DNA of 24,000 nucleotides from Candidatus Subterrananammoxibius californiae (GCA_030586555.1 JAURAC010000003.1:84073-108072), one strand, 5' to 3'. Counted from the first letter of the stretch, positions 2,893 through 19,886 are shown. Notes: generated by a model not told the origin, from the letters alone. Made by a program: numbers and translations.

Positions 2893-4389
2893 TTACTCCT
2901 TAGCAACGACAGGCGAAGGTGCCTCTGTTCCAGAGACGACTGTAACTGCAGCACCCGACCCAAGGTCTTCATGTCCTACAATAACAATTACATCGTCTTC
3001 ATTAAGACCACTGATTACCTCAACTTCATTGCCTTCAGAAAATCCAAGCTTAACCTTTGCTTTATGTGCCCTTGTCTCCAACTGAAGCGCATCATTCTGA
3101 ACTTGTAGGGGCGAACGGCCGTTCGCCCCTACCTTTTCTATATCAATACGACTCCCTGTAGCTTCTGCAATGCCATCGGAACCCTCTAAAAGTTCAATGG
3201 TAATACCACCTGGTCCGCCTGAGGCGGACTTCTCGCTTACTATCCCTGTAACACACTTTTCTGCTTCGTGGTCAGTCGGTTGTGCTACCGGGTCATCTTT
3301 CCTACCTGCATGAGGTGGTCTGGACTTCAAACCTTCGGCTGAGCAGTTCGACCCTGAGCTCACTGCCGAAGGGTTCAGGTCGAAGCCAAATGAAAGCTTT
3401 ACGTAATCGCCAACAACAAATTTTTTAGCCTCCTGCTCAGAAAGTGAAAGTATAGCAAAATTTTTGACAACAAACACCTCTGCACCCTCTGATTCAAAGA
3501 GTAATGCCTTTTTGGGTATTATTAACGCATTCGCATGTTGTTCAGTGATAGTATAAACCGACGCAAACATGCCAGGCCTGAGAGGAGAGCCTTCTGTATA
3601 TTCAATTTCTATGGTTACTTTTATAGTTCCGCTTTCGGGGTCAACTACCGGGCTAATCATCTTTACCACGCCGTTAAATTGTAATCCCGGAAGCGATTCA
3701 ATGGTTATAATAGCGGGCTGTCCCTCTTTAAGCTTGCTCAGGTCTTTTTCAGGTACATGAATCCTTGCAAGCAGCGGGTTAAAGTTTGCTACTGCAAAGA
3801 CCTTCTGATTCTTTTGCACCACATTTCCCACCTCAATTACCCTACCAACAACTATACCAGTTATTGGAGATGTTATAGTATTGTATGTATATTCAAGGTT
3901 TTTCCTTTCGTAATCCACCATCGAGGTTTCATATTGCAGCCTGCTTTCGTCAAGCTGTTCTTTGCTGGTGATTTTATCCTCGTATGTACCCTGGGAGCGT
4001 TCGTATATCATTTTGGCATTTTCGCACCTTATCTTCGCATCTTTAAGGGCAAGGAGTGATTCTGTCTCGTCAAGTTTTGCAAGCGCCTGACCTTCAGCCA
4101 CTTTTTGTCCTTCTTCGACAAGTATCTCCTTTACTTGTCCAGAGGTTTTTGTCATTATATCAACCTGTTTCTCTGCCTCAATTGTGCAATTGATGAGTAA
4201 GTAAGTGTTTATATCCTTTTTTTTAACATGAGCAACCTCTACCGGTATTGCAGCTTTCTGGGGTAAGGAAGCGTTAGCTTCCCTGTTAAGCCCGGTCAAA
4301 GCCGATTCAAGAATAATTAATAAAGGTATAACAATTATGTTTATAATACCCGGTTTAGACATGTTCTTCTCGCCAAAAATATTAAACAT
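2893..4389 (-). CDS. Efflux RND periplasmic adaptor (membrane fusion protein, HlyD family) with an atypical ~110-aa C-terminal insertion
   Basis: 498-aa ORF. It has an N-terminal membrane anchor (IINIIVIPLLIIL) and coiled-coil/lipoyl-like segments (VKEILVEEGQKVAEGQALAKLD, ITSPITGIVVGRVIEVGNVV). The C-terminal beta-barrel (KVKLGFSEGNEVEVISGLNEDDVIVIVG) is interrupted by a low-complexity insert. An alternative start is the ATG at 4362 (MSKPG...). Confidence 0.8.
   Translation of the reverse strand: MFNIFGEKNMSKPGIINIIVIPLLIILESALTGLNREANASLPQKAAIPVEVAHVKKKDINTYLLINCTIEAEKQVDIMTKTSGQVKEILVEEGQKVAEGQALAKLDETESLLALKDAKIRCENAKMIYERSQGTYEDKITSKEQLDESRLQYETSMVDYERKNLEYTYNTITSPITGIVVGRVIEVGNVVQKNQKVFAVANFNPLLARIHVPEKDLSKLKEGQPAIITIESLPGLQFNGVVKMISPVVDPESGTIKVTIEIEYTEGSPLRPGMFASVYTITEQHANALIIPKKALLFESEGAEVFVVKNFAILSLSEQEAKKFVVGDYVKLSFGFDLNPSAVSSGSNCSAEGLKSRPPHAGRKDDPVAQPTDHEAEKCVTGIVSEKSASGGPGGITIELLEGSDGIAEATGSRIDIEKVGANGRSPLQVQNDALQLETRAHKAKVKLGFSEGNEVEVISGLNEDDVIVIVGHEDLGSGAAVTVVSGTEAPSPVVAKE
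3105..3132. repeat. GTAG-family perfect 28-bp palindrome inside the adaptor gene
   Basis: GTAGGGGCGAACGG|CCGTTCGCCCCTAC, read in frame on the minus strand as VGANGRSPL. Confidence 0.85.
3213..3229. repeat. Hairpin GTCCGCC-tga-GGCGGAC inside the adaptor gene
   Basis: It shares the 14-mer TCCGCCTGAGGCGG with the accB-murE spacer (12893-12906). It encodes SASGGP. Confidence 0.75.
3332..3372. repeat. Nested hairpin inside the adaptor gene carrying the GGGTCGAAC core (on the minus strand)
   Basis: CCTTCGGC-TGAGC-agttcgaccctga-GCTCA-ct-GCCGAAGG. AGTTCGACCC (3345-3354) is the reverse complement of 12905-12914. Confidence 0.7.
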
Positions 4390-4444
4390 ACATTAATTTT
4401 AGCATATAACCCGCATAAAGCAAGGAGTAAAACTTATTTAAGCT

Positions 4445-4479
4445 GTGCGTAATGAGCTATGAGCAATGAACTACGAGCT
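4445..4479. repeat. Heptanucleotide array upstream of the def promoter
   Basis: (GTGCGTA) ATGAGCT ATGAGCA ATGAACT ACGAGCT. The same unit family occurs at the ddl-ftsQ junction. Confidence 0.6.
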
Positions 4480-4487
4480 AAATTGCC

Positions 4488-4516
4488 TTGCTTTTTTGGC
4501 ATGCTGTGCGTATAAT
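4488..4516 (+). promoter_or_regulatory. Putative def-fmt promoter
   Basis: TTGCTT (4488-4493), a 17-nt spacer, then TATAAT (4511-4516). The def ATG at 4526 is only 9 nt past the -10 box and has no SD. Confidence 0.5.
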
Positions 4517-4525
4517 TATTTTATC

Positions 4526-5074
4526 ATGGAAATTGTAATTTATCCTGCACCTGTATTAAGATTAAAGGCTAAACCCGTAGAGGAGATAGATGATACTGTT
4601 TCCCAGCGTGCTGAGGAGATGCTGGAATTGATGTATGAGGCAAAAGGAGTGGGTCTTGCTGCGCCGCAAATAGGCTGGTCTAAGCGTCTAATCGTCAAAG
4701 ATGTTGCAGGCGAGAAGATAGACGACAAGGTTTTTATAAATCCAGTTATCATTGAGGAAAAAGGAGAGGTTATAGAAGAAGAGGGCTGCTTAAGTTTTCC
4801 GGGTGTATTAGGAAAGGTAATGCGCGCTGAGCAGGTGGTGGTAATTGCTTACAACCTGAAAGGCGAGAGGCTCGAATTTGAAGCTGTAGGATTGGATGCT
4901 CGTGTCTGGCAGCATGAGATTGACCATATTGATGGACGCCTTTTTATTGATAAGATGAGCCCTGCAAGCCGATTGGCCGTTTCAGGGCGATTAAAAGAAC
5001 TCGAACGAGAATACCAAAAACGGCAGTCAAGTTATCAGATATCAGCACCAAGTAAGCTGAAAGCTGATGTATGA
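4526..5074 (+). CDS. def: Peptide deformylase
   Basis: All three deformylase motifs are present: GVGLAAPQIG, EGCLSFPG and HEIDHIDG. The track ORF begins at 4466 inside a heptamer repeat. The conserved N-terminus MEIVIYPAPVLR begins at the ATG at 4526. Confidence 0.9.
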   Translation: MEIVIYPAPVLRLKAKPVEEIDDTVSQRAEEMLELMYEAKGVGLAAPQIGWSKRLIVKDVAGEKIDDKVFINPVIIEEKGEVIEEEGCLSFPGVLGKVMRAEQVVVIAYNLKGERLEFEAVGLDARVWQHEIDHIDGRLFIDKMSPASRLAVSGRLKELEREYQKRQSSYQISAPSKLKADV

Positions 5075-6063
5075 ACATAGTTTTTTTGGGAACATCTGAC
5101 TTTGCTGTGCCCAGCTTGCGTTCTTTGGCAGCCTCTAAGCACAAGATTTTGGCAGTGGTTACGCAGCCCGACAGGCCAAAGGGAAGAAGCAGCCAACCCT
5201 GCCCGTCTCCTGTTAAAGCGGTCGCCGATGAATACGGTTTGCGTGTAATTCAACCTGAAAATGTTAATCATCCAGAAACTGTTTTACTATTGGAGGAGAC
5301 GCGTCCCGATATTATTATAGTAGTTGCTTATGGTCAGAAGCTTTCCCAGCAAATTTTATCTATACCTAAATATCAATGTATCAATATACACGCCTCCTTA
5401 CTCCCGAGGTATCGGGGTGCAGCGCCTGTAAATTGGGCAATCATAAACGGGGAGGATGTTACAGGGGTAAGCATTATAATAATGGGAGAGCGAATGGATA
5501 CTGGCGACATTATCGCCCAGCGCTCATTATCAATATACCCTCATGAAACCGCAGGTGAATTAGAAAAACGTCTCGCCCCGTTGGGCGCCGAAGTTTTACT
5601 ATTTGTACTGGAACAACTTGAGAAAGGCACTGTAATTTCCAAAGCGCAGGATGATGCTAATGCAACCTATGCGAAAAAGTTAAAAAAAGAAGACGGCAGG
5701 ATAAATTGGAACCAGGATGCAAAGAGGATACACAATTTCGTCAGAGGGATGACGCCTCGTCCATGCGCATATACATATCTTTCTAAGGCAGATAAAAAAA
5801 TTAGAATAATTATTTTGAAAACAGAAATAGGCACTGTGTGGCATGGACAAACTTGTTTGTCCGTGAAACCACAGCCTGGTGATGTCATTGACATCTCAGC
5901 TAAAGGGATAAACGTGGCAGCAATTGATACAGCTGGTGCTGACTTCGTTCCAAGTATCTTGATTACCATGCTACAGCCCGAGGGTAGGCGGTTAATGAGC
6001 GCAGCAGAATTTATTCGAGGGCATAGTATTAAAGTAGGAGACCATTTCAACTCTATACCATAA
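5071..6063 (+). CDS. fmt: Methionyl-tRNA formyltransferase
   Basis: N-terminus MNIVFLGTSDFAVPSL plus the HASLLPRYRGAAPVNWAIING motif. Its start overlaps the def stop in an ATGA junction, giving the classical def-fmt pair. Confidence 0.9.
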   Translation: MNIVFLGTSDFAVPSLRSLAASKHKILAVVTQPDRPKGRSSQPCPSPVKAVADEYGLRVIQPENVNHPETVLLLEETRPDIIIVVAYGQKLSQQILSIPKYQCINIHASLLPRYRGAAPVNWAIINGEDVTGVSIIIMGERMDTGDIIAQRSLSIYPHETAGELEKRLAPLGAEVLLFVLEQLEKGTVISKAQDDANATYAKKLKKEDGRINWNQDAKRIHNFVRGMTPRPCAYTYLSKADKKIRIIILKTEIGTVWHGQTCLSVKPQPGDVIDISAKGINVAAIDTAGADFVPSILITMLQPEGRRLMSAAEFIRGHSIKVGDHFNSIP

Positions 6064-6069
6064 GTAGCA

Positions 6070-6089
6070 GTGGCGGATTAACCCGCCAC
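6070..6089. other. Hairpin after the fmt stop: GTGGCGG-attaac-CCGCCAC
   Basis: A 7-bp GC-rich stem lies 7 nt after the fmt stop codon. It is followed by an A-rich run rather than a U-rich one, so it is not a canonical intrinsic terminator. Confidence 0.4.
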
Positions 6090-6120
6090 ATAATAAAAAT
6101 AAAGGGGAGAACTTATAGCT

Positions 6121-6600
6121 ATGGAAGTGCTTGATAAGAAATTTGTATCGTTAAACAATCTGATGACCAGGTTAAGGAATAAGAAGTGTTCACCAGGCAG
6201 TTTGTTGCTTTTGTTTCCCCACTGCATACAATATTCTAAATGCAAGCAGAATATAAATGCAGATTTAGCAGAATGCAGACGCTGTGGCAAATGCAAGGTC
6301 AAGGATTTGTTGGAGCTTTCTGAAGAATACGGGGTTAGTATTGCTATAGCAAATGGAGGCAGGATTGCGCTCCAGAGGGTTATGGCTGACGAAGTAAAAG
6401 GCGTAATAGCAATTGCCTGTGAGAAAGAACTCCGCTTAGGAATTATGGCAGCCCTTTCTAAGAGGGTACTTGGAGTTGCCAATCTAAGACCTCATGGATA
6501 TTGTGTGGATACCGATGTCGTGCTTGACGACGTAAGAAAGGCTATTGAGCAGTTTTTAGAACGACCCCCTGTTTCAAACAGCGAATCCCCCTCGACTTAA
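6121..6600 (+). CDS. DUF116-family Cys-rich protein (soluble domain only)
   Basis: The motif pattern LLLFPHCIQ..C....C(RR)CGKC....GG....GVIAIACEKEL matches my recollection of DUF116/COG1852. It lacks the N-terminal membrane segment usually seen in this family. The 3' end overlaps the convergent gene by 27 nt. Confidence 0.55.
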   Translation: MEVLDKKFVSLNNLMTRLRNKKCSPGSLLLLFPHCIQYSKCKQNINADLAECRRCGKCKVKDLLELSEEYGVSIAIANGGRIALQRVMADEVKGVIAIACEKELRLGIMAALSKRVLGVANLRPHGYCVDTDVVLDDVRKAIEQFLERPPVSNSESPST

Positions 6601-8136
6601 AGGTAGAATATCTTTGTTAATCAGTGGGCAATTTTTTGCCCTAACATCAGGAGGAATAGGAAGGCCCAAAAACCCACCTTCTTCTCGATTATAAAGCTCG
6701 TATATTAGGAAATCTTTAGTCTCTTCTCTTTGTTCGTTTGTTAAAATACCCCCGTCCTTTTTCGAAGGCTCTTTTATCAAAATACCCCCATTCTCCTTCG
6801 AAAGTACTTTTGTTAAACTACCTTCGTTCTTCTCTGAAAGCTCTTTATCTATTTGAAGTACCCACCTCGTGCCATGAGCAAAAGGCATTTTAGGTGAAAA
6901 ATCTTTTGAAAATGTAAACCCCCCTCCATCGCAATAACACTCTCTAACAAATTGTTTAATCCTCTCTATTTTATCTTTCTCAATTTTCAAACCTAAAAGG
7001 TTCATAATGCGGAGGGCAAAATAGGTACCGTTTGTTGAGGCTATTCTTCCCTCAGAAGCACCATATCCACCCCGTTGTTCATCCCAGCATCTATCTATAA
7101 ATTTTAAAAATTTAGTCTTTTTCTCATCATTAAAGAACTTGTTGCGTAATTTAGTGAATTCTTCCTTATAATAAGGTTTATCGCCCATTAACGATAACGC
7201 AAAAGATGTGGCGGACATGGTCGGTTTTTTTTGGGAAGGGCTTGGGGCAAAGCCTAAGGCAGAGCCATCGACGTCGATAGACTTTTCACAGTTTTCTATA
7301 TAGTTTTCAATTTCAGACTTTGGGATTAGTTCAAATAATTTGTTCTCCCTATTCAATGACCAAAATAGTCTACTTAATAAGTACGTTACGCATATTCCGT
7401 CAGTCGTATTATTTCCTGGTTGGTCGTAAACATAATGAATATTATCCTTCAATTCTACACAACTTCTAATAAACTCGTTTAACTTAGTATCTCTCCACTC
7501 AATTATCTTTTTAAGGAACTCATTTGTGTTTCCATTATTAATTAATTTTTCCTTTATTGGTATGCCAAGTGCATGTTTTATCACCTCTATTGCATTAGAA
7601 GTTCCATAAATACTGACTTTCTCTTCTTTCCCGTTAGGGGTAGGGAACGGAACAATGCTATAACCTCCTTGTTTCTCATCAAAGCACCTATTTACAAAGT
7701 TGAGGATCCTATCCTGATTATGTTTAATAAACCCTCCGTCTTTTAATAAAGAGAGGCTTACTAAAGCGGCACGAGTAGTATCTATACTTCTTTGTAACCA
7801 ACAATACATGTAATCCCTGAAGCCTGGCTCTAATCCGATATCACTACTTCTTAGCAAAACAAGCATAGCGTTACCCACGTCTCGCTTGGCTTCTTCTCTT
7901 AGTTCTGCGTCTTTAATAGAAAAGATGCATGGTTTAATGTAGGAGGGGAGTACAGGAGGCTGTAGCTGTAAAGGTGGCATTTGAAGCGCTTTTTCTACTG
8001 GTGGATCTCCTCTCATAGACCAATAAATAAATATCCCACCTAAAAAGATAAGGCTGGAAAAGAATAGGATATTCATGAATAGTTCATTTATGCTCACTAT
8101 CCCTCCAACGCTTATCCCAGAAAACCATCTTCTCAA
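6574..8136 (-). CDS. Membrane-anchored protein with prenyltransferase / squalene-cyclase-type (alpha/alpha toroid) repeats; function unknown
   Basis: There is an N-terminal TM segment (NILFFSSLIFLGGIFIYWS). A motif recurs four times: ILNFVNRCFDEKQGGYS, LKFIDRCWDEQRGGYGA, IKQFVRECYCDGGGFTF and DFLIYELYNREEGGFLG. An alternative start at the ATG at 8076 (MNILFF...) would remove the 53-nt overlap with the upstream gene. Confidence 0.6.
   Translation of the reverse strand: MRRWFSGISVGGIVSINELFMNILFFSSLIFLGGIFIYWSMRGDPPVEKALQMPPLQLQPPVLPSYIKPCIFSIKDAELREEAKRDVGNAMLVLLRSSDIGLEPGFRDYMYCWLQRSIDTTRAALVSLSLLKDGGFIKHNQDRILNFVNRCFDEKQGGYSIVPFPTPNGKEEKVSIYGTSNAIEVIKHALGIPIKEKLINNGNTNEFLKKIIEWRDTKLNEFIRSCVELKDNIHYVYDQPGNNTTDGICVTYLLSRLFWSLNRENKLFELIPKSEIENYIENCEKSIDVDGSALGFAPSPSQKKPTMSATSFALSLMGDKPYYKEEFTKLRNKFFNDEKKTKFLKFIDRCWDEQRGGYGASEGRIASTNGTYFALRIMNLLGLKIEKDKIERIKQFVRECYCDGGGFTFSKDFSPKMPFAHGTRWVLQIDKELSEKNEGSLTKVLSKENGGILIKEPSKKDGGILTNEQREETKDFLIYELYNREEGGFLGLPIPPDVRAKNCPLINKDILPLSRGGFAV
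6743..6804. repeat. 36-nt tandem duplication inside the toroid-repeat gene
   Basis: AAAATACCCCCGTCCTTTTTCGAAGG (6743-6768) recurs as AAAATACCCCCATTCTCCTTCGAAAG (6779-6804). The two copies encode SKENGGILIKEP and SKKDGGILTNEQ. Confidence 0.7.
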
Positions 8137-8506
8137 ACGCTATTACCCAGAAGAAAATAATAAGTATTATAAACAGGAATGCAGCTGGTTCGGTGGGTTT
8201 AAATGGTTTGAAAAGGTCAAGAGCTCTCTCGAAAAAGCTAATCAAAAGGACAACGAAAAATGAGAAAAATAGAGGAATGCTATATTTTTTGATTCTGTAC
8301 CAGAAACCTCCCTTCCGGTTTTGGCATACGTTTGCAAAACTCTGGGCAAGTAAGACTACCGCTATTCCACACAAGAAAAGGAGTGCAATTGCATATCTGA
8401 GCGGAAAGTCTGGTGATAAAGATTCTTTGGGCGAAGGTTTTTCAAGAATGATATACGTTAACCAGACTGCAATAAATGCACCGAAGAAATGATTAATTGC
8501 ACCCAC
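8084..8506 (-). CDS. Small integral membrane protein (4 predicted TM helices), function unknown
   Basis: 140-aa ORF with a GTG start at 8506. A perfect SD precedes it (AAAGGAGG, then a 6-nt spacer, read on the minus strand). There are four hydrophobic stretches. It is the first gene of the operon divergent from mraZ. Confidence 0.6.
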   Translation of the reverse strand: MGAINHFFGAFIAVWLTYIILEKPSPKESLSPDFPLRYAIALLFLCGIAVVLLAQSFANVCQNRKGGFWYRIKKYSIPLFFSFFVVLLISFFERALDLFKPFKPTEPAAFLFIILIIFFWVIAFEKMVFWDKRWRDSEHK

Positions 8507-8593
8507 TAATTTCCTCCTTTTTCAGCTCTATTAAAAGTTATTTAGTAACCATGTACTTAAAGAAGTTAAGAAGTATAGAGTTGAACTATTTTA

Positions 8594-8617
8594 TCCCACC
8601 CCCCCCACTTCATCCCA
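8594..8617 (-). promoter_or_regulatory. Putative MraZ operator, mirror copy: three TGGGN boxes on the minus strand
   Basis: The minus strand reads TGGGA-tgaag-TGGGG-gggg-TGGGA, with boxes at 8617-8613, 8607-8603 and 8598-8594. It lies about 90-110 nt upstream of the GTG at 8506. Confidence 0.5.
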
Positions 8618-8632
8618 CATTGTAACACTTAA

Positions 8633-8659
8633 TTTATACCTTTTTTTCGTCATTGTCAA
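8633..8659 (-). promoter_or_regulatory. Putative sigma70-type promoter for the divergent operon
   Basis: The minus strand reads TTGACA (8659-8654), a 15-nt spacer, then TATAAA (8638-8633). The spacer is short. The module is colinear with the mraZ promoter module. Confidence 0.45.
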
Positions 8660-8718
8660 GAAATTTTTTATAGGCGTTTTCACAAATTTTTTTAAAAATC
8701 CACCACGTTCTAACACTA

Positions 8719-8768
8719 CAATATATTGATGTAATATCTTTTTCTAAGTCAATATATAGTTGATGTAA
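8719..8768 (+). repeat. Direct repeat in the AT-rich divergent spacer
   Basis: CAATATATTGATGTAA (8719-8734) and CAATATATAGTTGATGTAA (8750-8768). Confidence 0.6.
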
Positions 8769-8811
8769 AAATATACAAAAAAATTTTCTAAAAATAATAA
8801 TAAAATTTTTC

Positions 8812-8839
8812 TTGACAAAGGAGAAAAAAGGTTTATAAA
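8812..8839 (+). promoter_or_regulatory. Putative Pmra-like promoter of the dcw cluster
   Basis: TTGACA (8812-8817), a 16-nt spacer, then TATAAA (8834-8839), 42 nt upstream of the mraZ ATG. Confidence 0.55.
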
Positions 8840-8855
8840 GGCAAGTGTTATATTG

Positions 8856-8880
8856 TGGCAAAAAGTGGGGAGAAATGGGG
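8856..8880 (+). promoter_or_regulatory. Putative MraZ operator: three TGGNN boxes at exact 10-bp phasing
   Basis: TGGCA (8856), TGGGG (8866) and TGGGG (8876), each followed by a 5-nt spacer. The last box abuts the mraZ ATG at 8881. This matches the TGGGN direct-repeat operator described for E. coli MraZ. Confidence 0.6.
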
Positions 8881-9312
8881 ATGCTCACGGGAACCTTCTG
8901 TCACGCCTTAGACGAAAAAAACCGTTTATCCATTCCATCCAAATGGAGAAAAGACCTCGAAAAGGATGGAAAGGAAGTATACGTCACTCCTGGTTTGGAT
9001 CAATGTCTTTTCATATTGTCCTCTCTTCAGTTTGAAGAACTCGCACAAAAGGTCAAACAGCTTCCTTTTACAAAGGAAAATGTGCGGTCCTTTTTGCGGC
9101 TCTTTTTTTCCAAAGCTTCTCCGCCCCTTGAATTTGACAAACAGGGCAGAATCTTAATACCTCAGTTTTTAAAAGACCATGCCGAGATTGATAAGGAAAT
9201 AGTCCTCGTTGGTGTATACGACAGGATTGAAGCATGGAACCCAAAACTCTGGGATAGTTTCAACTCACAAAAGGAGGGGTCTTTTGAAAAGATTGCAGAA
9301 ACCCTCTTTTAA
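8881..9312 (+). CDS. mraZ: Transcriptional regulator MraZ
   Basis: MLTGTFCHALDEKNRLSIPSKWRKDL plus a second half-repeat FDKQGRILIPQFLKDH, giving the duplicated DxxxR MraZ/SpoVT-AbrB fold. The track start at 8845 is an upstream extension. Confidence 0.9.
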   Translation: MLTGTFCHALDEKNRLSIPSKWRKDLEKDGKEVYVTPGLDQCLFILSSLQFEELAQKVKQLPFTKENVRSFLRLFFSKASPPLEFDKQGRILIPQFLKDHAEIDKEIVLVGVYDRIEAWNPKLWDSFNSQKEGSFEKIAETLF

Positions 9313-9355
9313 GTCTTCATCTGAACAAGAAGTCCTTTTGTTTTTTATTATATTT

Positions 9356-10279: not shown

Positions 10280-10286
10280 AGGAATA

Positions 10287-10673
10287 ATGATTAGTAAATT
10301 CTTGCCTTTGGTAGGAATTACTGTTATAATGACACTATTTATTGTATGGGAACAAGTTCAGACTACAAAATGTGGTTATAAGGTGGCAGAACTGCAAAAG
10401 AAGATAACCGACCTTCAGGAGAAAAACAGAAGGCTTGAGTGTCAGGTAAGCGCCCTGAAAAAACCCGAGCGGGTTGTCAATGCAATTCAATCCATGGGGA
10501 TTGACCTTGCGCAACCCTTAGAGAATAAAGATATGATAGCAAAGACAAAACAGCCCGGTCCTCAGAGGGGTCGAACAACTAATACTATCGTTGCTTCTGC
10601 CAGAGCCGAGCTTGGCCCCCTCGGCAGAGGCAAAGAGGTGAAAAAGCAAAAAGGTGGAAAGGTAAAGAGGTAA
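10287..10673 (+). CDS. ftsL: FtsL-like cell division protein (single TM plus coiled coil) with a basic low-complexity tail
   Basis: It sits in the position of ftsL. It has a TM segment (FLPLVGITVIMTLFIVW) followed by a coiled coil (VAELQKKITDLQEKNRRLECQVSALKKPERV). The start is the ATG at 10287, just after the rsmH stop. Confidence 0.65.
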   Translation: MISKFLPLVGITVIMTLFIVWEQVQTTKCGYKVAELQKKITDLQEKNRRLECQVSALKKPERVVNAIQSMGIDLAQPLENKDMIAKTKQPGPQRGRTTNTIVASARAELGPLGRGKEVKKQKGGKVKR

Positions 10674-10703
10674 AAAAGAGCCTTTCAACCTTTGGTGCAT
10701 TAT

Positions 10704-12419
10704 ATGTTCTCAAAGTCATTTAAAATCAGGTTATCAGCAATTGGAATATTCCTAATAATTGCGTACATCGCACTGGGGGTTCAATTAGTTCGGATACAAC
10801 TGTTTGACTATGAGAAATATTCCAGGATGGCAGAGGCTCAACACAATAAGAGGATTGAGCTGACTGCGCATCGGGGACCTATCCTTGATTGTAAGGGGAG
10901 GAAACTTGCAGCATCCCTAATCCTTTGCTCGGTATTTGCCAATCCCACAGAGGTGCAGGAAAAACCCAGAACCGCCCACTTATTGGCAAAAACCCTTCGC
11001 TTAGACGTATCTCGGGTGCTGAAGTTATTGGAAAAGGAAAAGAAATTTGTATGGATAAAGAGGAAGATAACTGAGGACGAAGCCTCAGCAATTGAGAAAC
11101 TAAACTTACAAGGCATCGGTTGCAGGGAAGAAACAGACCGATTCTATCCTAACGGAACGCTTTGCAGCCAGGTAGTTGGTTTTGTAGATATTGACGGAAA
11201 AGGGTTAGAGGGTATCGAGCTCGCCTTTGATAATATCCTTTCGGGTGAAAGCGGCTATAGGTTGCTTCGAAGGGACGCCCTCCAGCGCCACCTCTCGACC
11301 CTTGAGGGGAAAACCCAGACCCCCAGACACGGCGATGGGATAATGTTAACAATAGATGCTGTAATCCAGACCATTGTGGAGGATGCACTTAGAAAGGCTT
11401 GTGAAACCTATCGTCCAATTTCCGCAATCGCCATTGCGATGGTTCCTTCAACCGGGGATATCCTTGCTATGGCTAATCTACCTTCTTATGACCCGAACTT
11501 CTTCTGGAGATATTCCCCCGATGAGTGGCGAAGTCGTGCAGTTACCGATTGCTATGAGCCTGGCTCCCTTCTTAAACCTGTTGTTGCATCTGGAGCGCTT
11601 GAATACGGACTGGCTACACCAGAGGATGTCTTCTTCTGTCATAATGGGGTATATACAATTGGTAAAAGAACGCTTCACGACGTTCACGAGTACGGAAGGC
11701 TTACTTTGGCTGAAATCCTTATCAAATCGAGTAATATAGGAATGGCAAAATTGGGGATGCTCATGGGGCAAGAAAAGCTTTATCATCACTTGCGCAAATT
11801 CGGTTTCGGAGAGAAAACTAATGTAGAACTTCCAGGGGAAATCAGTGGTACGGTACGGCCTCTCAGGGCATGGTCCTATTACTCGGTAACATCAATTCCA
11901 ATGGGACACGAAATAGCGGTTACCCCTTTACAGATTCTTACCGCCTTTTGCGCTATTGCCAATGGTGGGGAGCTTCTGCGTCCTCGAATTGTACGAGCTA
12001 TTACTGAAAGCAACGGCAAGACAATTAAAAGAGAGTTTACTACACCCACGAAGATACGGCGCGTAATAAGTTCTACTGTTGCCAATGACACAATGACCCC
12101 AATACTCTCAAGAGTGGTAAAAGATGGAACAGGGAAAAAGGTTGATATGCCAGAGTACGAGGTTGCTGGTAAAACAGGAACGGCACAGAAATTACTGCCG
12201 GGTGGAAGGGGATATACTGCATCCAAATATATAAGTTCATTTATTGGATACGCCCCTGCAAACCATCCCGAAATATGTGTGCTTGTTATATTAGATGAAC
12301 CAAGAAGTGGCGCTTATTATGGAGGAACGGTTGCAGCGCCTGCTGTACGAGAAATAATAAGGAAGTCATTAGATTACATGGGAGTTAAGCCTCAGGGCGT
12401 GCTTCCACCAACCTCTTAA
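10704..12419 (+). CDS. ftsI: Peptidoglycan D,D-transpeptidase (class B PBP, FtsI type)
   Basis: N-terminal TM segment, a PBP dimerisation region, and the transpeptidase motifs SLLK (SxxK), SSN (SxN) and KTGT. The ATG at 10704 is preferred over the TTG at 10692. Confidence 0.9.
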   Translation: MFSKSFKIRLSAIGIFLIIAYIALGVQLVRIQLFDYEKYSRMAEAQHNKRIELTAHRGPILDCKGRKLAASLILCSVFANPTEVQEKPRTAHLLAKTLRLDVSRVLKLLEKEKKFVWIKRKITEDEASAIEKLNLQGIGCREETDRFYPNGTLCSQVVGFVDIDGKGLEGIELAFDNILSGESGYRLLRRDALQRHLSTLEGKTQTPRHGDGIMLTIDAVIQTIVEDALRKACETYRPISAIAIAMVPSTGDILAMANLPSYDPNFFWRYSPDEWRSRAVTDCYEPGSLLKPVVASGALEYGLATPEDVFFCHNGVYTIGKRTLHDVHEYGRLTLAEILIKSSNIGMAKLGMLMGQEKLYHHLRKFGFGEKTNVELPGEISGTVRPLRAWSYYSVTSIPMGHEIAVTPLQILTAFCAIANGGELLRPRIVRAITESNGKTIKREFTTPTKIRRVISSTVANDTMTPILSRVVKDGTGKKVDMPEYEVAGKTGTAQKLLPGGRGYTASKYISSFIGYAPANHPEICVLVILDEPRSGAYYGGTVAAPAVREIIRKSLDYMGVKPQGVLPPTS

Positions 12420-12454
12420 AATGGGATGTGTCCCTATTAAAGGGAGGCGAAAAA

Positions 12455-12886
12455 ATGTGTTACATTGATACAGTAAAAGAACTGATTTCACTTACCAATA
12501 CATACAATCTGGTAGAAATTGAGATACACCAGGATATGACACGGATACGCATTAAAAAGAATGGTGCAGGCCGGCTAATAAGTAATCAGGATTGTAGAGA
12601 CGCAATGCCTTGCGTCTCTACAGAAGAGTTTCCAACAGAAAGCTGTGTAATTACCTCTCCTATGGTCGGCACTTTTTATAGAGCTCTCAGTCCAGGGTCA
12701 AAGCCTTTTATTGATATCGGCTCAGAAGTTAATTCTGAAAAGGTAGTGGGTGTTATTGAAACGATGAAAATAATAAATGAGGTTAGTGCAGGCGTAACAG
12801 GGAGGGTAGTTGAGGTCTTTGTTGAGGATGGCGAGGCTGTAGAGTTCGGTCAGCCGCTCTTTCGTGTACAACAAACACACACGTGA
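12455..12886 (+). CDS. accB: Biotin carboxyl carrier protein-like (biotinyl/lipoyl domain) protein
   Basis: SPMVGTFYRA...VGVIETMKIINEVSAGVTGRVVEVFVEDGEAVEFGQPLFRV is a BCCP biotinyl domain with ETMK in place of the usual EAMK. The N-terminus resembles AccB (LVEIEIHQDMTRIRIKK). A GGGAGG SD lies 7 nt before the ATG at 12455. Confidence 0.7.
   Translation: MCYIDTVKELISLTNTYNLVEIEIHQDMTRIRIKKNGAGRLISNQDCRDAMPCVSTEEFPTESCVITSPMVGTFYRALSPGSKPFIDIGSEVNSEKVVGVIETMKIINEVSAGVTGRVVEVFVEDGEAVEFGQPLFRVQQTHT
12593..12622. repeat. GTAG-family palindrome inside the accB-like gene
   Basis: TGTAGAGACGCAA-tgcc-TTGCGTCTCTACA with 13-bp perfect arms. It is read as CRDAMPCVST in the linker between the N-terminal and biotinyl domains. 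Confidence 0.85.
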
Positions 12887-12924
12887 AAAGCATCCGCCTG
12901 AGGCGGGTCGAACTTGCTTTTCAC
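12883..12924. repeat. Compound hairpin in the accB-murE spacer
   Basis: GTGAAAAGCA (12883-12892) pairs with TGCTTTTCAC (12915-12924). These enclose CCGCC-tga-GGCGG (12894-12906) and GGGTCGAACT (12905-12914). No U-tract follows. Confidence 0.7.
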
Positions 12925-12931
12925 TCCCCCG

Positions 12932-12950
12932 ACCCAAGCACTGCTTGGGT
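12932..12950. repeat. 19-nt palindrome ACCCAAGCA-c-TGCTTGGGT
   Basis: Perfect 9-bp arms. It is followed by CCCCG-N9-CGGGG (12952-12970). Confidence 0.7.
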
Positions 12951-12976
12951 GCCCCGAAGAGAAGACGGGGGTGTGT

Positions 12977-12996
12977 CCTTTTGAAAAAGGTGAGAG
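12977..12996 (+). promoter_or_regulatory. Conserved leader motif upstream of murE (CCTTTT-ga-AAAAGG-TGAGAG)
   Basis: A hairpin plus purine tract. AAAGGT begins exactly 21 nt before the ATG at 13007. Confidence 0.5.
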
Positions 12997-13006
12997 AAGT
13001 GTTTGT

Positions 13007-14476
13007 ATGAAACTTAGCAAATTGCGCTCATATCTGTTAAACGTTAAGAGCTACGACTTCAACGATAGGGATATAAATGGAATTGTTCATGACTCTCGTC
13101 GTGCTAATCAAGGATGTCTATTTGTAGCAATAAAGGGGTATAGTGTTGACGGGCATAATTTTGCAATGAATGCCATTGAACGGGGCGCTATTGCATTAGT
13201 CACCGAAAAGAAACTTGAACTCCTTTCTGGTACCCCACAGTTAGTTGTTTCTGATACAAGGAAAGCACTCTCTACACTCAGCCATTATTTCTATGCTGAG
13301 CCATCCTCAAAAATCATCGTAACGGGCATAACAGGTACAAATGGCAAAACCACCACATCATATTTAATCAAATCCATTATTGAAAGCGCTGGCGCACAAG
13401 CTGGTCTTATTGGCACGATTCTTTATCAAATCAATCAAAGGCTTATACCCTCAATCGAGACAACCCCAGAATCACTTGAACTACATGCCTTCCTTGCAGA
13501 GATGCTGGGTTTTGACATAAAATATGCGGTAATGGAGGTTTCATCACATGCACTTGCTCAATACAGAACGAGAGATATAAACTTTAGTACTGCAGTTTTT
13601 ACGAACCTATCCCATGACCACCTTGACTACCATCGTACTGTTACAGCGTATCGAGATGCCAAGGCACGATTATTTGAGTGCCTGAGCCATAAGTCTTTTG
13701 CAATCTTGAACGCTGATGAACAAAATAGCAAACACTTTGCAAGCAGAACACAGGCTCAAATAATCTGGTACGGCATGAAAAATAGGGCGGAAGTAACAGC
13801 AGAAGTAATTTCCCAGACCATTAATAATACAAAATTCAGGTTGTGTTGCCCAAGGGGGGAGGTGATTATAAATTCGCATCTTATAGGCAACCATAACGTA
13901 TACAACGCCCTCGCAGCATCAGCTAATGCACTAGCTCTTGGCTTCGACCTCGAAACGATAAAGAAAGGCATCGAAGCTGTCCCCTCAGTCCGCGGCAGGT
14001 TAGAAACCGTTGAGTGTGGTCAAAGTTTCCGAGTTTTCATAGATTTTGCCCACACACCTGATGCACTTCAAACCGTCCTTACTACATTAAGACCGTTAAC
14101 GAAGGGACGTATTATACTTGTATTCGGCTGCGGGGGGGACAGGGACAGAGAAAAACGTCCGAAGATGGGACGCATTGCAGAAAAATATTCTGACTTATTC
14201 TGGATAACCAGCGACAATCCACGTTCAGAAGACCCTGTAAGTATCATTAATGAAATCGAGGCAGGAATAACCTCTGGAAGTTATTACCACGTACAGCCAG
14301 ACCGTAGGCTTGCAATAGAGGAAGCGCTTTCCGAGGCTAAAAAGAGTGACACAGTTCTTATCGCAGGGAAAGGGCATGAAAGGTGCCAGATTTTTAATAG
14401 CACGGTGATCCCTTTTGATGATAGGGATGTTGTTAAAAAGATACTTGTAGGGGCACGACAAGCCGTGCCACTGTAA
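13007..14476 (+). CDS. murE: UDP-N-acetylmuramoyl-L-alanyl-D-glutamate--2,6-diaminopimelate ligase
   Basis: GITGTNGKTTT P-loop, GCGGDRDREKRPKMG, and a DNPR motif (typical of meso-DAP-adding MurE). The track start at 12914 reads through spacer hairpins; the ATG at 13007 gives 489 aa. Confidence 0.9.
   Translation: MKLSKLRSYLLNVKSYDFNDRDINGIVHDSRRANQGCLFVAIKGYSVDGHNFAMNAIERGAIALVTEKKLELLSGTPQLVVSDTRKALSTLSHYFYAEPSSKIIVTGITGTNGKTTTSYLIKSIIESAGAQAGLIGTILYQINQRLIPSIETTPESLELHAFLAEMLGFDIKYAVMEVSSHALAQYRTRDINFSTAVFTNLSHDHLDYHRTVTAYRDAKARLFECLSHKSFAILNADEQNSKHFASRTQAQIIWYGMKNRAEVTAEVISQTINNTKFRLCCPRGEVIINSHLIGNHNVYNALAASANALALGFDLETIKKGIEAVPSVRGRLETVECGQSFRVFIDFAHTPDALQTVLTTLRPLTKGRIILVFGCGGDRDREKRPKMGRIAEKYSDLFWITSDNPRSEDPVSIINEIEAGITSGSYYHVQPDRRLAIEEALSEAKKSDTVLIAGKGHERCQIFNSTVIPFDDRDVVKKILVGARQAVPL
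14447..14474. repeat. Degenerate GTAG-family palindrome forming the last codons of murE
   Basis: GTAGGGGCACG-acaagc-CGTGCCaCTgt, translated as VGARQAVPL followed by the stop. Confidence 0.55.
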
Positions 14477-14477
14477 A

Positions 14478-14500
14478 TTTTTCAAAAAAGGAGAATGGGA
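14478..14500 (+). promoter_or_regulatory. Leader motif variant upstream of the small ORF (TTTTT-c-AAAAAAGG-AGAATGGGAGAA)
   Basis: AAAGGA begins 21 nt before the ATG at 14508, the same spacing as at murE and mraY. Confidence 0.4.
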
Positions 14501-14507
14501 GAAAAGA

Positions 14508-14696
14508 ATGGTCATAAGGTGCTCTGTATGCAAAAAGATTAAGAAATTTGGCAAGTGGATTGAGGTACCTAAACCTCTTGAAGAAGAAATGAAAGAAGTT
14601 CCTGTCCTTTTAGTTCTTTGTGAAGACTGTAGAAAGGAGACATCTACCGTCATAAATCCGCCGGACACCGCAAAATACAGGGCAGTTTGTTTTTAA
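14508..14696 (+). CDS. Small zinc-ribbon-like protein (CxxC...CxxC), 62 aa, function unknown
   Basis: MVIRCSVCKK...LVLCEDCRKE has two CxxC pairs about 30 residues apart. It shares the dcw-type leader motif and fills the murE-murF gap. Confidence 0.5.
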   Translation: MVIRCSVCKKIKKFGKWIEVPKPLEEEMKEVPVLLVLCEDCRKETSTVINPPDTAKYRAVCF

Positions 14697-14701
14697 TTGG
14701 G

Positions 14702-14757
14702 CTATAGGCGACAGGTCATAGGTTAACTCCTATTACCCATAGCCAATCACCTACAAT
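14702..14757. repeat. Heptanucleotide array upstream of murF
   Basis: CTATAGG CGACAGG TCATAGG TTAACTC CTATTAC CCATAGC CAATCAC CTACAAT. The outer arms form a dyad (GGCTATAGG with CCCATAGCC). Confidence 0.65.
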
Positions 14758-14772
14758 AAAGGAGACAGCACG

Positions 14773-16224
14773 TTGGGACCGATTAGCGCAATTGAAATAG
14801 CACAAGCCGTAAGAGGGCAGATTAAGCACGGTAAGGGAGAAAGCCGTTTTGTCAGAATTTCCAGGGACAGCAGGCATATCTTACCTGGCGATTTATTTGT
14901 TGCACTGAAAGGTGAACGTTTTAACGGTCACGATTTCGTCTTAGATGCGCTCGCCGGAGGGGCTGCGGGGGTAATGGTAGAGACGCAAGATTTTGCGTCT
15001 CTACCAGGCTTTCTTAATGTATCAAATACAGATGTGGTGGTGATATTTGTAAACGACACACTTAAAGCGTTGGGAGACCTTGCAGCATACTATCGCCAGA
15101 AATTACCCACCCATATTATTGCTGTTACAGGCAGTAACGGCAAGACGACCACAAAAGATATAATTCATCACCTTTTAAGCCAGTGTGCAATGGCAACCAA
15201 ATCTCCAGAAAGTTTTAATAATTGCATCGGCGTACCGTTAACGATTTTTGAACTCAACAGTCAGACAGATTTTGGGATAATTGAGATGGGTACAAATGCG
15301 CCCGGGGAGATTAGAAGATTATCAGAAATTGTCCGACCACACACTGCTGTCTTTACGAACATCTCTGAAACACATCTGGAGGGTCTTGGAAGCGTAGAAG
15401 GCGTTGCAAAAGAAAAGGGGGAAATGCTTAATTACATTGATAAAGATGGAACAATAGTAATTAATGCCGACAACGTCTGGTGTAACAAGATTGCTAAGAG
15501 TTTTTCGGGGCGAATCATTAGATTCGGGATTAACAACCAGGCACAAATTAAGGGTTCAAACGTTAGCCGCACTGATTTAGGATTAGCTTTTACCGTTAAT
15601 GACGACTTCAGAGTAAATGTGCCATTTTATGAAATCCACAATGTTTATAACTGCCTTGCAGCTTTAGCCGTTTGCTACTCGCTGGGCTTTGATATTGAGA
15701 AATTAAGCAAGACTCTCTTACGCTTCCGCCTCCCCGCAATGAGGATGGACAGGCAAAATATAGGTGATATAGCAGTCATTAATGATGCATACAATGCTAA
15801 TCCGCAGTCCATGCTTGCCGCATTAAACGAATATAGTGAAATGAAGGTACACGGAAGAAAAATCTTTATATGTGGCGATATGTTAGAACTCGGAAATCAT
15901 GCAGAACGCCTTCATAAGGAGATTGGGATTAAGGTTGCTCACGCAGGTATTGACCTTTTGCTAACTGTAGGTAAACTCTCAAGATACGTTGCAGAATCTG
16001 CAACCGCACACGGAATGGCGAAAGAAAATACAATGTGCTATGACAGTTTAGGTGAGCTTCTTGCATCTATAGTCTATTGTTTGAAAGACGGCGATACAAT
16101 ACTTATAAAAGGGTCCAGGCGAATAGGGCTGGAAGGTATCATTGAACGAATCGAGTCCTATTTTGCCAATAGGGACAAATTTACTTCTTTGAAAAGAAGT
16201 AAGTCCGCTATAATTTCCGGATAA
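14773..16224 (+). CDS. murF: UDP-N-acetylmuramoyl-tripeptide--D-alanyl-D-alanine ligase
   Basis: VTGSNGKTTTKD P-loop, NDAYNANP and GDMLELG motifs. The TTG start at 14773 lies 7 nt after AAAGGAGA. Confidence 0.9.
   Translation: MGPISAIEIAQAVRGQIKHGKGESRFVRISRDSRHILPGDLFVALKGERFNGHDFVLDALAGGAAGVMVETQDFASLPGFLNVSNTDVVVIFVNDTLKALGDLAAYYRQKLPTHIIAVTGSNGKTTTKDIIHHLLSQCAMATKSPESFNNCIGVPLTIFELNSQTDFGIIEMGTNAPGEIRRLSEIVRPHTAVFTNISETHLEGLGSVEGVAKEKGEMLNYIDKDGTIVINADNVWCNKIAKSFSGRIIRFGINNQAQIKGSNVSRTDLGLAFTVNDDFRVNVPFYEIHNVYNCLAALAVCYSLGFDIEKLSKTLLRFRLPAMRMDRQNIGDIAVINDAYNANPQSMLAALNEYSEMKVHGRKIFICGDMLELGNHAERLHKEIGIKVAHAGIDLLLTVGKLSRYVAESATAHGMAKENTMCYDSLGELLASIVYCLKDGDTILIKGSRRIGLEGIIERIESYFANRDKFTSLKRSKSAIISG
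14976..15005. repeat. GTAG-family palindrome inside murF
   Basis: GGTAGAGACGCAA-gatt-TTGCGTCTCTACC with 13-bp perfect arms. It is read in frame as VETQDFASLP. Confidence 0.85.
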
Positions 16225-16256
16225 AGCATCTTCCTGGAAAATTATAAGGTTTTTGG

Positions 16257-16285
16257 CTTACCTTTCTTGAAAAAGGTAAGAGAGG
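16257..16285 (+). promoter_or_regulatory. Conserved leader motif upstream of mraY (CTTACCTTT-cttgaa-AAAGGTAAG-AGAGG)
   Basis: A 9-bp stem. AAAGGT begins 21 nt before the GTG at 16293. Confidence 0.5.
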
Positions 16286-16289
16286 ATTA

Positions 16290-17408
16290 TTGGTGTTTTA
16301 CCATTGGTTTTTTCAGTTCCAGAATGCCTCGATAGATTCCATAGGATTTAAAGCCGACGTTATACTCAGATGCACCCTTGCTACTCTAACGGCATTCCTT
16401 ACAACTATCCTCGTAGGAGCCTTTGTTATCAAAAAACTTAAGAAGTTTCATGTGGCTGAAGATACCTCTAAAACAGATTCTGAAGAACTTAAAAGGCTGC
16501 ACGAAGGCAAGAAGAACACCCCAACAATGGGTGGTATTATAATCATGATTGGCATCGTTGGTTCGACATTCTTATGGTGCAATCTGCGAAATGGCTACGT
16601 GCTGTTGTCCCTGTTTGCCATTCTGTGTTTCGGTATCATCGGCTTTTTTGACGATTACATAAAACTTACACAAAAACATGCAGCGGGACTAACCTGGCGG
16701 ACAAAACTAATGTCCCAATTTGCGCTGAGCTTTGTCCTTGCACTAATATTGTACTTCTGCTTCGGAGGTATCGAGGGGTTTACAAGCCTTGCTATCCCAT
16801 TCTTTACTCAACTCAAAGTGAATCTCGGGCCTCTTTATCTCGTAGCAATCACAATTTTCATAGCAGCATCCTCAAATGCAGTCAACCTTACTGATGGGTT
16901 GGATGGTCTGGCGATTGGTTGCACCATCATAACGGCAACTACGCTTGCATGTGTAACCTATATTGTTGGGCATGCAAGTGTAGGGGCGTATTGCAATACG
17001 CCCCTACATATTCTCCATATTCCTGAATGCACTGAACTAAGTATATTCTGTTCCGCACTGATAGGCGCCGGTCTTGGATTCCTGTGGTACAACTGCTTTC
17101 CAGCTCAAGTATTTATGGGGAACACCGGTTCACTATCAATTGGCGGCGTTCTTGGGTTCATTGCTGCTGTATCAAAACAAGAACTTTTGCTACTTCTTAT
17201 AGGGTCTATATTCTTTATAGAGCTTTTTTCTGTCCTGATACAGTTCACGTATTTTAAATTGTCAGGCGGGAAGAGGGTCTTCAGATGCGCTCCAATACAT
17301 CATCATTTTCAGTTTATGGGTTGGTCTGAAACCAAGATTACTAACCGATTTTTTATTCTTGCAGCAGTCATAGCAGCCTTTGGTTTTGCAGGGTTTACGT
17401 CTGGGTAG
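16290..17408 (+). CDS. mraY: Phospho-N-acetylmuramoyl-pentapeptide transferase
   Basis: A polytopic membrane protein with the NLTDGLDGLA, VFMGNTGSLSIGG and PIHHHFQ motifs. The start is either the TTG at 16290 or the GTG at 16293. Confidence 0.9.
   Translation: MVFYHWFFQFQNASIDSIGFKADVILRCTLATLTAFLTTILVGAFVIKKLKKFHVAEDTSKTDSEELKRLHEGKKNTPTMGGIIIMIGIVGSTFLWCNLRNGYVLLSLFAILCFGIIGFFDDYIKLTQKHAAGLTWRTKLMSQFALSFVLALILYFCFGGIEGFTSLAIPFFTQLKVNLGPLYLVAITIFIAASSNAVNLTDGLDGLAIGCTIITATTLACVTYIVGHASVGAYCNTPLHILHIPECTELSIFCSALIGAGLGFLWYNCFPAQVFMGNTGSLSIGGVLGFIAAVSKQELLLLLIGSIFFIELFSVLIQFTYFKLSGGKRVFRCAPIHHHFQFMGWSETKITNRFFILAAVIAAFGFAGFTSG
16979..17008. repeat. GTAG-family perfect palindrome inside mraY
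   Basis: T-GTAGGGGCGTATTG|CAATACGCCCCTAC-A. The core at 16980-17007 is a perfect 28-bp palindrome, read in frame as VGAYCNTPLH. Confidence 0.85.
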
Positions 17409-17424
17409 GTCTAAACTGACAAAA

Positions 17425-17487: not shown

Positions 17488-17517
17488 TTGCTGATATCTC
17501 AAAATTATACTATTTCT

Positions 17518-18663: not shown

Positions 18664-18676
18664 GGGTCAAACAACT

Positions 18677-19870: not shown

Positions 19871-19886
19871 AACATCGTTGTCTACC
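19829..19886. repeat. Three-way (Y-shaped) hairpin element spanning the murG stop; GTAG-family outer stem
   Basis: The outer stem GGTAGAC (19829-19835) pairs with GTCTACC (19880-19886). It encloses AACGGAC-tttat-GTCCGTT and AACGATG-taaaa-CATCGTT. The murG TAA (19868-19870) sits in the second loop. Confidence 0.7.

Follow-up and report, generated by a model that had tools for sequence, protein, structure and literature searches.

In-frame palindromes, probably double-foot REPs, in cell-wall and efflux genes of a Candidatus Brocadiia bacterium

Transposases of TnpA_REP subclass 2.4, which carry the motifs NH[IFV]H, WQ and YIxNNP, occur in Cyanobacteria, Bacteroidetes and various other phyla, and their cognate repetitive extragenic palindromes (REPs) begin with 5' GT[AG]G and end with 3' C[TC]AC, the arrangement termed a 'double foot' (Quentin et al. 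2018, BMC Genomics 19:475). The same study found REPs in frame within tnpA_REP itself, with the reading frame intact, and noted REP insertions in unrelated genes too. Corneloup et al. (2021) state explicitly that the way in which REPs spread is unresolved. Here we analyse palindromes of this type in a 24,000-nt stretch of DNA (the window) from Candidatus Subterrananammoxibius californiae (GCA_030586555.1 JAURAC010000003.1:84073-108072), where they lie inside genes of a planctomycete dcw (division and cell-wall) cluster and inside the gene of an RND efflux periplasmic adaptor. The family and the in-gene phenomenon are known. What is new is the lineage and the genes that serve as hosts: the anammox-related Brocadiia join the known hosts of double-foot REPs.

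In-gene copies have a second precedent. The survey by Di Nocera, De Gregorio and Rocco (2013, BMC Genomics 14:522) describes scores of in-frame intragenic GTAG REPs in housekeeping genes, Opitutus terrae accounting for about 70 (e.g. GTAG-17/18/19). As in our window, these lie wholly within housekeeping open reading frames (ORFs; uvrA, dnaE2, ftsY, E2 subunits), where they add 7-30 residues and keep the frame; their GTAG ends often supply TAG stops, and the survey interprets them as neutral inserts in linkers and loops. Unlike the elements considered here, they have a single unpaired GTAG foot and other stems, and the peptides VGA....PL and VET....SL have no entry in part 1 of 3 of the survey's table of intragenic REPs. 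An initial annotation of the window had taken such REPs to be extragenic, had offered the palindromic elements of Rickettsia as the precedent for in-frame copies, and had thereby implied a departure from REP biology. The premise does not survive the survey just cited; the Rickettsia elements are not the only precedent, given that survey and the in-frame REPs in tnpA_REP (Quentin et al. 2018); and both family and phenomenon had already been published.

Two further systems bear comparison. Classical REPs, bacterial interspersed mosaic elements (BIMEs) and REPINs (hairpin-forming REP doublets) of Escherichia coli and Pseudomonas, associated with groups 2 and 3 of RAYTs (REP-associated tyrosine transposases), share a GTAG guide-like foot, a hairpin and large copy numbers, and they are tied to a single-copy, domesticated Y1 transposase. 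They differ in being imperfect (a bulge or a single foot) and overwhelmingly extragenic, whereas the 28-mers in the window are fully symmetric and present the same substrate on both strands. We rejected a classical single-foot REP or BIME as an identification of the 28-mers, since their feet are paired at either end, their stems are perfect and they lie inside genes. Rickettsia palindromic elements (RPEs) are about 100-150 bp long and restricted to Rickettsia, and we know of no transposase for them. They too are palindromic repeats found in frame in essential genes and tolerated in surface-exposed segments, but have no sequence relation to the elements in the window, whose length of 28 nt and host among the Planctomycetota led us to reject this identification as well.

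Six palindromes were located in the window, and are given here with the class to which we assign them:

3105..3132, perfect 28-nt double-foot REP GTAGGGGCGAACGGCCGTTCGCCCCTAC, in the RND adaptor gene, minus-strand reading VGANGRSPL
12594..12621, 28-nt double-foot REP GTAGAGACGCAATGCCTTGCGTCTCTAC, in the linker of an accB-like gene, read in frame c as CRDAMPCVST
14447..14474, plus strand, degenerate REP GTAGGGGCACGACAAGCCGTGCCACTGT, the last nine codons of murE (VGARQAVPL), followed by TAA at 14474-14476
14977..15004, 28-nt double-foot REP GTAGAGACGCAAGATTTTGCGTCTCTAC, in murF, VETQDFASL, residues 69-77
16980..17007, perfect 28-nt double-foot REP GTAGGGGCGTATTGCAATACGCCCCTAC, in mraY, VGAYCNTPL, residues 231-239
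19830..19885, 56-nt GTAGACAACG...CGTTGTCTAC, two classical REP units as an inverted dimer that overlaps the stop codon of murG at 19868-19870

The first five had been placed correctly by the initial annotation, which also had their unbroken reading frames and peptides right, together with the identities of the genes (RND adaptor, a gene resembling that for biotin carboxyl carrier protein, MurE, MurF and MraY); the sixth had been missed. Its description of 'one family' was loose. There are at least four inner-sequence variants in the window, each 0-1 nt from a variant in distant phyla, plus the different, classical REP dimer at the murG tail; only this last element is REPIN-like, an inverted dimer of single-foot units, each with a GTAGA foot and an 8-9 bp hairpin. 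The cores of the 28-mers start with GGGCG or AGACG. The degenerate murE copy keeps its GTAG foot and has CTGT where CTAC is expected.

The pattern GTAGRGRCG-N6-16-CGYCYCTAC has 4 matches in the window, against a mean of 0.00 in 100 dinucleotide-preserving shuffles, and a looser scan for GTAG...CTAC palindromes gave 5 against 0.36 expected (maximum 2); the shuffles rule out chance. The density is thus 5-6 copies in 24 kb, where 0-0.4 would be expected. Two of them, in the adaptor and accB-like genes, are also present in an independent assembly of a strain 97-99% identical to the window (GCA_016187585.1, here L130), which rules out an assembly artefact. The four perfect copies fold as hairpins of 12-14 bp (-20.8 to -24.5 kcal/mol, z -5.8 to -8.4), the degenerate murE copy folds less stably (-13.2 kcal/mol, z -2.8), and the murG-tail element forms a pair of hairpins with an outer stem closing them (-29.2 kcal/mol, z -6.8). 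Two of the three frames of the palindrome are free of stops in both orientations, reading V-G-A/V-E-T...P-L/S-L and R-G/R-D...P-T/S-T; the third has a TAG in both orientations, which is why the in-frame copies use two frames only. Directly 3' of the mraY copy there is also a CATATTC direct repeat with a period of 9.

To place these sequences, a GTAG...CTAC DNA pattern with the inner 10 nt unconstrained was scanned over a genome collection covering 185,579 species, giving at least 120 loci and 129 matches. The listed loci span Bacteroidota, Cyanobacteria, Chloroflexota, Planctomycetota, Omnitrophota, Nitrospinota, Desulfobacterota and others. Among the 129 matches listed, the length is 28 nt in 90 and 29 nt in 26, and 86 are perfect palindromes while 24 have one mismatch, although the pattern left the inner 5+5 nt free to differ; the chance that these pair is about 0.001 for each match. 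The family is conserved in its outer 9 nt, GTAGAGACG or GTAGGGGCG; the inner 5+5 nt differ between copies yet remain complementary, i.e. they co-vary. Exact matches to the mraY 28-mer occur three times in a Salinibacteraceae genome (L046) and also in a Planctomycetales genome (L065). The murF copy is 1 nt from a widespread variant, CAAAATTTTG. The adaptor copy, GTAGGGGCGAACGGCCGTTCGCCCCTAC, is letter for letter the entry for tnpA_REP AFZ53750.1 in Table S1 of Quentin et al. (2018), and the accB copy is 1 nt from GTAGAGACGCAATGCATTGCGTCTCTAC, the entry there for ABB28784.1. Searching the literature with the raw sequences gave hits to primers and oligonucleotides only.

RAYT-like Y1/HUH genes, found by tblastn with an ORF from L046, are present at 5 of the 120 listed loci, always at the palindrome (within about 120 nt or around it). 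The mraY 28-mer matches REPs in and beside the RAYT-like gene of L046; GTAGAGACGCAATGCATTGCGTCTCTAC, the near match of the accB copy, flanks the RAYT gene of L049, a textbook REPtron with tandem REPs on both sides of the gene; and at L123 a REP lies just upstream of a RAYT-like gene. The encoded proteins match NF047646 (REP-associated tyrosine transposase) with E values of 1e-9 to 1e-16, and the JGI name for their homologues is 'REP element-mobilizing transposase RayT'. About 90 of the best 120 RAYT homologues contain RDAMHCVST, i.e. a REP read in frame c. In sequence, the palindromes of the window equal REPs found beside and inside RAYT-like genes of other phyla, and the suggestion in the initial annotation that they are GTAG palindromes of the RAYT (Y1) kind is borne out, both by these identical or 1-nt-different 28-mers and by their listing in Quentin et al. 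(2018). With the double-foot REPs of subclass 2.4 (Bertels group 4) they share the GTAG and CTAC feet, the 28-nt perfect hairpin with three G-C pairs at the bottom of the stem, in-frame insertion in genes including tnpA_REP, and an occurrence in Cyanobacteria, Bacteroidetes and scattered phyla. They differ in the lineage (Candidatus Brocadiia) and genes (dcw cluster, RND adaptor) that host them, and in a junction between filled and empty sites with pre-existing feet, described below, for which we found no earlier description.

In many of the RAYT homologues (P0121-P0240), tandem QRDA or QRDT repeats lie just upstream of the in-frame RDAMHCVST. They look like partial duplications of the REP left arm, CAGAGACGCA, which suggests slippage at the hairpin.

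We consider it likely that the elements in the window are double-foot REPs, the cognate repeats of RAYT/TnpA_REP Y1-HUH transposases of subclass 2.4, that they were spread by RAYT, and that they are neutral passengers. Each would consist of a 20-nt hairpin core with a GC-rich bottom, held between a 5' GTAG and the complementary 3' CTAC. A RAYT encoded now or formerly elsewhere in the genome would process these hairpins on single-stranded DNA and spread them, and selection would then keep only those copies that preserve the host protein. The surviving copies lie in tolerant locations and have net length changes that are multiples of three.

Several observations weigh against this interpretation. 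Profiles and tblastn found no RAYT/Y1 gene in the 24-kb window or in a further 4.75 kb of L130; the RAYT-like matches at the listed loci fall under the NCBIfam curated cut-off of 80 bits; and no in vivo demonstration of RAYT-driven REP dissemination has ever been given (Corneloup 2021). The 24 kb contain four different inner variants, which points either to several sources or to a transposase indifferent to the upper stem. Finally, the +6, +12 and +18 nt changes at the sites compared below mean that the events were not simple insertions of whole 28-mers. A search with the RAYT profile, saturated with homologues of the Bacteroidetes type, named no Brocadiia protein among the best 120.

We compared the window with syntenic DNA of relatives, which for the dcw cluster were L003, L006 and L008 and for the adaptor region L129, L131 and L132. 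MurF in the window is 100% identical to an NCBI protein from a Candidatus Brocadiia bacterium, and the next relatives are metagenome-assembled genomes (MAGs) of Brocadiales at 73-85% identity. The murF, mraY and murE-tail elements are all absent at the same sites in L003, L006 and L008. The murF element is missing from 8 relatives (73-85% identity), giving a net gain of 6 amino acids (+18 nt); the mraY element corresponds to a net +12 nt; and the adaptor element is missing from six relatives (72-81% identity) and present in the 99% relative, with a net +6 nt. At the murE tail the relatives have an unrelated nine-codon sequence, LQRPVFYFF, so that this was a replacement with a net change of 0 nt. 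None of the four changes is +28 nt. The murG-tail dimer is absent from L003 and L008. These absences also exclude ordinary conserved coding sequence as an explanation for the elements.

The accB copy behaves differently. It is orthologous in L003, L006 and L130, unchanged in L130, and carries one arm mutation each in L003 and L006 by which pairing is broken or weakened; among relatives it differs at 4/28 positions, against 3/54 in the flanks, and so shows no more conservation than neutrality would give. It is older than the others and is decaying. The expectation that the roughly nine codons would be lineage-specific therefore holds for murF, mraY, murE and the adaptor, and fails for accB, whose copy is common to two relatives. 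On these alignments, the REPs were gained in this Brocadiia lineage after its split from the closest sequenced relatives, with the accB copy gained earlier.

This distribution bears on a very different explanation, that the hairpins are functional in the operon, as mRNA stabilisers or as ribosome-pausing or processing sites along the dcw transcript, or that the encoded peptides are under selection. REPs elsewhere do affect mRNA decay and translation termination; in the window the hairpins have high stability as RNA (-21 to -24.5 kcal/mol), an element overlaps the stop codon in both murE and murG, and the accB copy has persisted in at least three lineages. Against such a role, and accB excepted, the elements are absent from the same genes of close relatives that have the same operon, while the accB copy itself decays in relatives. 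Many phyla have these same sequences in unrelated genes and between genes, Rfam gives no match in the window at its gathering thresholds, and the positions occupied are ones where any insert is tolerated. We regard a function of this kind as very unlikely; most likely the REPs are neutral passengers and not functional parts of their host genes. A role as terminators is likewise unlikely, with copies inside ORFs and no T-run.

The relatives have palindromes of their own. In one of them (L003 10040-10090, murF of relative P0004) a different palindrome of about 48 nt, CTTAATCCCCCC...GGGGGGATTAAG, lies in frame in murF and adds SPLNPPFNKGGKGGLS to the protein, and a similar hairpin, CCTCCCCCC-gca-GGGGGGAGG, is found in the gene after ddl, just past the end of the window (L001 1731-1751). 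Further elements of the relatives lie at L003 3156-3201 and 8072-8125, L006 417-493, L008 4049-4086 and L131 1061-1087. They comprise other GTAG...CTAC elements in the same cluster, among them an inverted REP dimer between accB and murE, and an in-frame REP-like sequence, VVGAGRACPY, in the N-terminal (signal) region of the adaptor. GTAG REPs of several families are thus present clade-wide, and the entry of small palindromes into genes is a habit of the clade.

The adaptor provides the one clean junction. The empty site in L131 and L132 reads AAG-GTAG-AAAGTATGGATACA-CTAC-AAGTT (full sequence GTAGAAAGTATGGATACACTAC), and the filled site in the window reads AAG-GTAG-GGGCGAACGGCCGTTCGCCC-CTAC-AAGTT; outgroups (Scalindua) indicate that the short form is ancestral. 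Both feet pre-existed, with a 14-nt interior exchanged for a 20-nt core to which it is not similar, a net change of +6 nt. At a random site, GTAG and CTAC would fall exactly at both boundaries with a chance of about 1.5e-5 per alignment. The ancestral murF sequence GTA-TCGCAAG is similar to the REP arm GTAGAGACGCAAG, and CCAGG ends both alleles; the exact break points in murF and mraY, at 73-85% protein identity, are placed equally well by several alignments and we make no claim for them, and this divergence makes the junctions of mraY, murE and murG uninterpretable. RAYTs are believed to take GTAG as guide and CT as cleavage site (Corneloup 2021), so the adaptor junction fits either a RAYT-catalysed exchange at pre-existing motifs or a microhomology-assisted conversion. 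As one clean case it may be a lead; it is not a result. This filled and empty pair with pre-existing GTAG and CTAC is the sole piece of the analysis that goes beyond the literature.

The second of these possibilities can be put more generally: REP DNA from other places in the genome would overwrite sites that already resemble REP ends, by gene conversion, microhomology-mediated repair or single-strand annealing at the fork, with RAYT playing a weak part or none at the target. Both feet were already there in the empty adaptor site, the ancestral murF site resembles a REP arm and shares its CCAGG end with the filled allele, and +6, +12 and +18 nt are changes of replacement, not insertion. Set against this, feet of 4 nt offer very little length for homologous recombination; a clean junction is seen just once, and mraY, murE and murG lack clear prior similarity. 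The strong association with RAYT genes suggests an enzyme, and GTAG and CT motifs fit a RAYT-catalysed exchange too. Overall we judge homology-assisted copying to be unlikely.

The first possibility leads to a more specific proposal, in which the feet are supplied by the target and only the 20-nt hairpin core moves, being swapped into GTAG-Nx-CTAC intervals by RAYT cleavage and strand transfer at the guide and cleavage motifs of both strands. A possible analogy is found in IS200/IS605 elements, which also rely on a Y1 HUH transposase and single-stranded hairpin substrates: there, a tetranucleotide guide 5' of the hairpin picks the cleavage site, and the target tetranucleotide lies outside the element. 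They differ in carrying their own transposase between two different ends, while the elements here are 28-nt non-autonomous hairpins. Target-supplied feet, if real, would explain the pre-existing feet in the adaptor, the changes other than +28 nt and the symmetry of the copies; coding sequence would suffer no frameshift whenever the replaced interior has the right length; and the field would gain a concrete, testable mechanism for REP dissemination, which it still lacks. We regard the proposal as tentative and, on balance, doubtful.

Another explanation is that the palindromes arose in place: intrastrand template switching during replication would have perfected quasi-palindromic coding sequence, without any mobile element. 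In its ancestral form the adaptor site is a weak quasi-palindrome (GTAG..GTAT GG ATAC..CTAC), there is partial arm similarity at murF, and the share of perfectly symmetric copies is high. This explanation is largely refuted by identical 28-mers in unrelated genes and phyla, the mraY copy recurring in L046 and L065 and the adaptor copy being the AFZ53750.1 REP; it also leaves the conserved outer 9 nt and the RAYT association unexplained, and the 20-nt core is unlike the 14 nt that it replaced. We consider it highly improbable. The spread of double-foot REPs by RAYT stays our preferred account of the elements.

Two other identities were considered and rejected. A MITE (miniature inverted-repeat transposable element) does not fit an element that is one hairpin throughout, has a clean adaptor junction without target-site duplication, and has flanks that are only weakly biased. 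CRISPR or attC arrays do not fit copies that are single and dispersed. As to the flanks, among 133 REPs from L009-L128 the base immediately 5' of GTAG is T in 44% and A in 12%, and the -1 and +1 bases are complementary in 38%, where 25% would be expected. This amounts either to a slight lengthening of the palindrome or to a weakly preferred target.

The host genes are as follows:

2893..4389, minus strand, RND efflux periplasmic adaptor gene (TIGR01730), REP host
12428..12886, plus strand, accB-like biotinyl-domain gene, REP host
12914..14476, plus strand, murE, REP as C-terminal tail
14773..16224, plus strand, murF, REP host
16290..17408, plus strand, mraY, REP host
18635..19870, plus strand, murG, REP dimer as C-terminal tail and stop

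All REP sites in the window are permissive, being linkers, variable loops or C-terminal tails. In AccB the REP corresponds to residues 56-65, in the linker ahead of a biotinyl domain that starts at residue 75. In MurF, residues 69-77 form a low-confidence loop (predicted local distance difference test score, pLDDT, about 61) between model strands 66-70 and 89-93 of the N-terminal domain, and E. coli MurF has gaps opposite this position. Residues 231-239 of MraY sit in a hydropathy trough flanked by two hydrophobic segments, and in a comparison with 4J72 HMMER opens a gap at the REP. The adaptor REP lies in the C-terminal region past the matched core, the NCBIfam matches reaching no further than residue 357; its segment is variable among relatives and is followed by a conserved C-terminal stretch. 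In MurE and MurG the element is the C-terminal tail. Even essential cell-wall genes, then, tolerate REPs in loops, linkers and tails, and short, lineage-specific peptides (VGA....PL, VET....SL and RDA...VST) in proteins from MAGs can be flagged as REP insertions and not as functional motifs or assembly errors.

The MraY alignment contains one further detail. HMMER pairs the REP-encoded VGAYCNTP with the native IAQYLNIP of Aquifex MraY (4J72), with Y, N and P in common, while close relatives have TSNYFQAL at this position. The likeness is probably a coincidence; it may explain why the insert was tolerated.

In-gene copies are also found outside this lineage. Of the copies listed in other genomes, roughly one in four falls within a long ORF when ORFs are judged crudely. 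Hosts confirmed by Pfam include a 2-oxoacid dehydrogenase E2 (REP between the lipoyl and E3-binding domains) and glutamate synthase GltB (between the GATase and central domains), as well as a HlyD-type adaptor, a heptosyltransferase, an FHA protein and a Por-tail protein. Perfect copies occur on twelve cyanobacterial plasmids; a 30-mer of the Bacteroidetes type had no match in plasmids. On plasmids of Planktothrix agardhii, a perfect double-foot REP lies in a type I polyketide synthase (PKS) gene (L133 601-628 = NZ_LR882937.1 36784-36811; AP017993.1 93458-93485), just after the region conserved with other PKS genes. With its place in a linker, the PKS copy joins those of E2, GltB and the HlyD adaptor as cases of tolerant positions like those in the window. 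Searches for filled and empty pairs with the flanks of the cyanobacterial plasmid copies returned filled orthologues or unrelated repeats only.

The remaining observations concern the setting of the elements. The gene order of the dcw cluster is mraZ, rsmH, ftsL, ftsI, the accB-like biotinyl-domain gene, murE, a 62-aa ORF, murF, mraY, ftsW, murG, murC, murB and ddl; the genes upstream are def, fmt, a DUF116 gene, the RND adaptor gene and the gene for a GGDEF protein. Three features of this arrangement are common to L003, L006 and L008: the position of the accB-like gene (12428-12886) between ftsI and murE; the conserved 62-aa CxxC...CxxC ORF at 14508-14696, between murE and murF; and the lack of murD at the mraY-ftsW junction (near 17408-17488). 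Towards the end of the cluster, a diverged tandem duplication of about 400 nt involves the 3' end of murB and the 5' end of ddl (22123-22350 versus 22532-22759, 87%; 22391-22456 versus 22781-22846, 77%). In the chimeric ORF at 22406-22759 (117 aa), a ddl-like N-terminus is joined to a MurB_C domain that is 80% identical to the real MurB C-terminus, and in relatives the spacing of murB and ddl is only about 80 nt. Between DUF116 and mraZ, a 2.2-kb segment (6563-8719) contains a 520-aa ORF (6574-8136, minus strand) with only a weak prenyltransferase-toroid match; L130 has a DUF4258 and MqsA-antitoxin pair in its place, a strain-level cassette swap.

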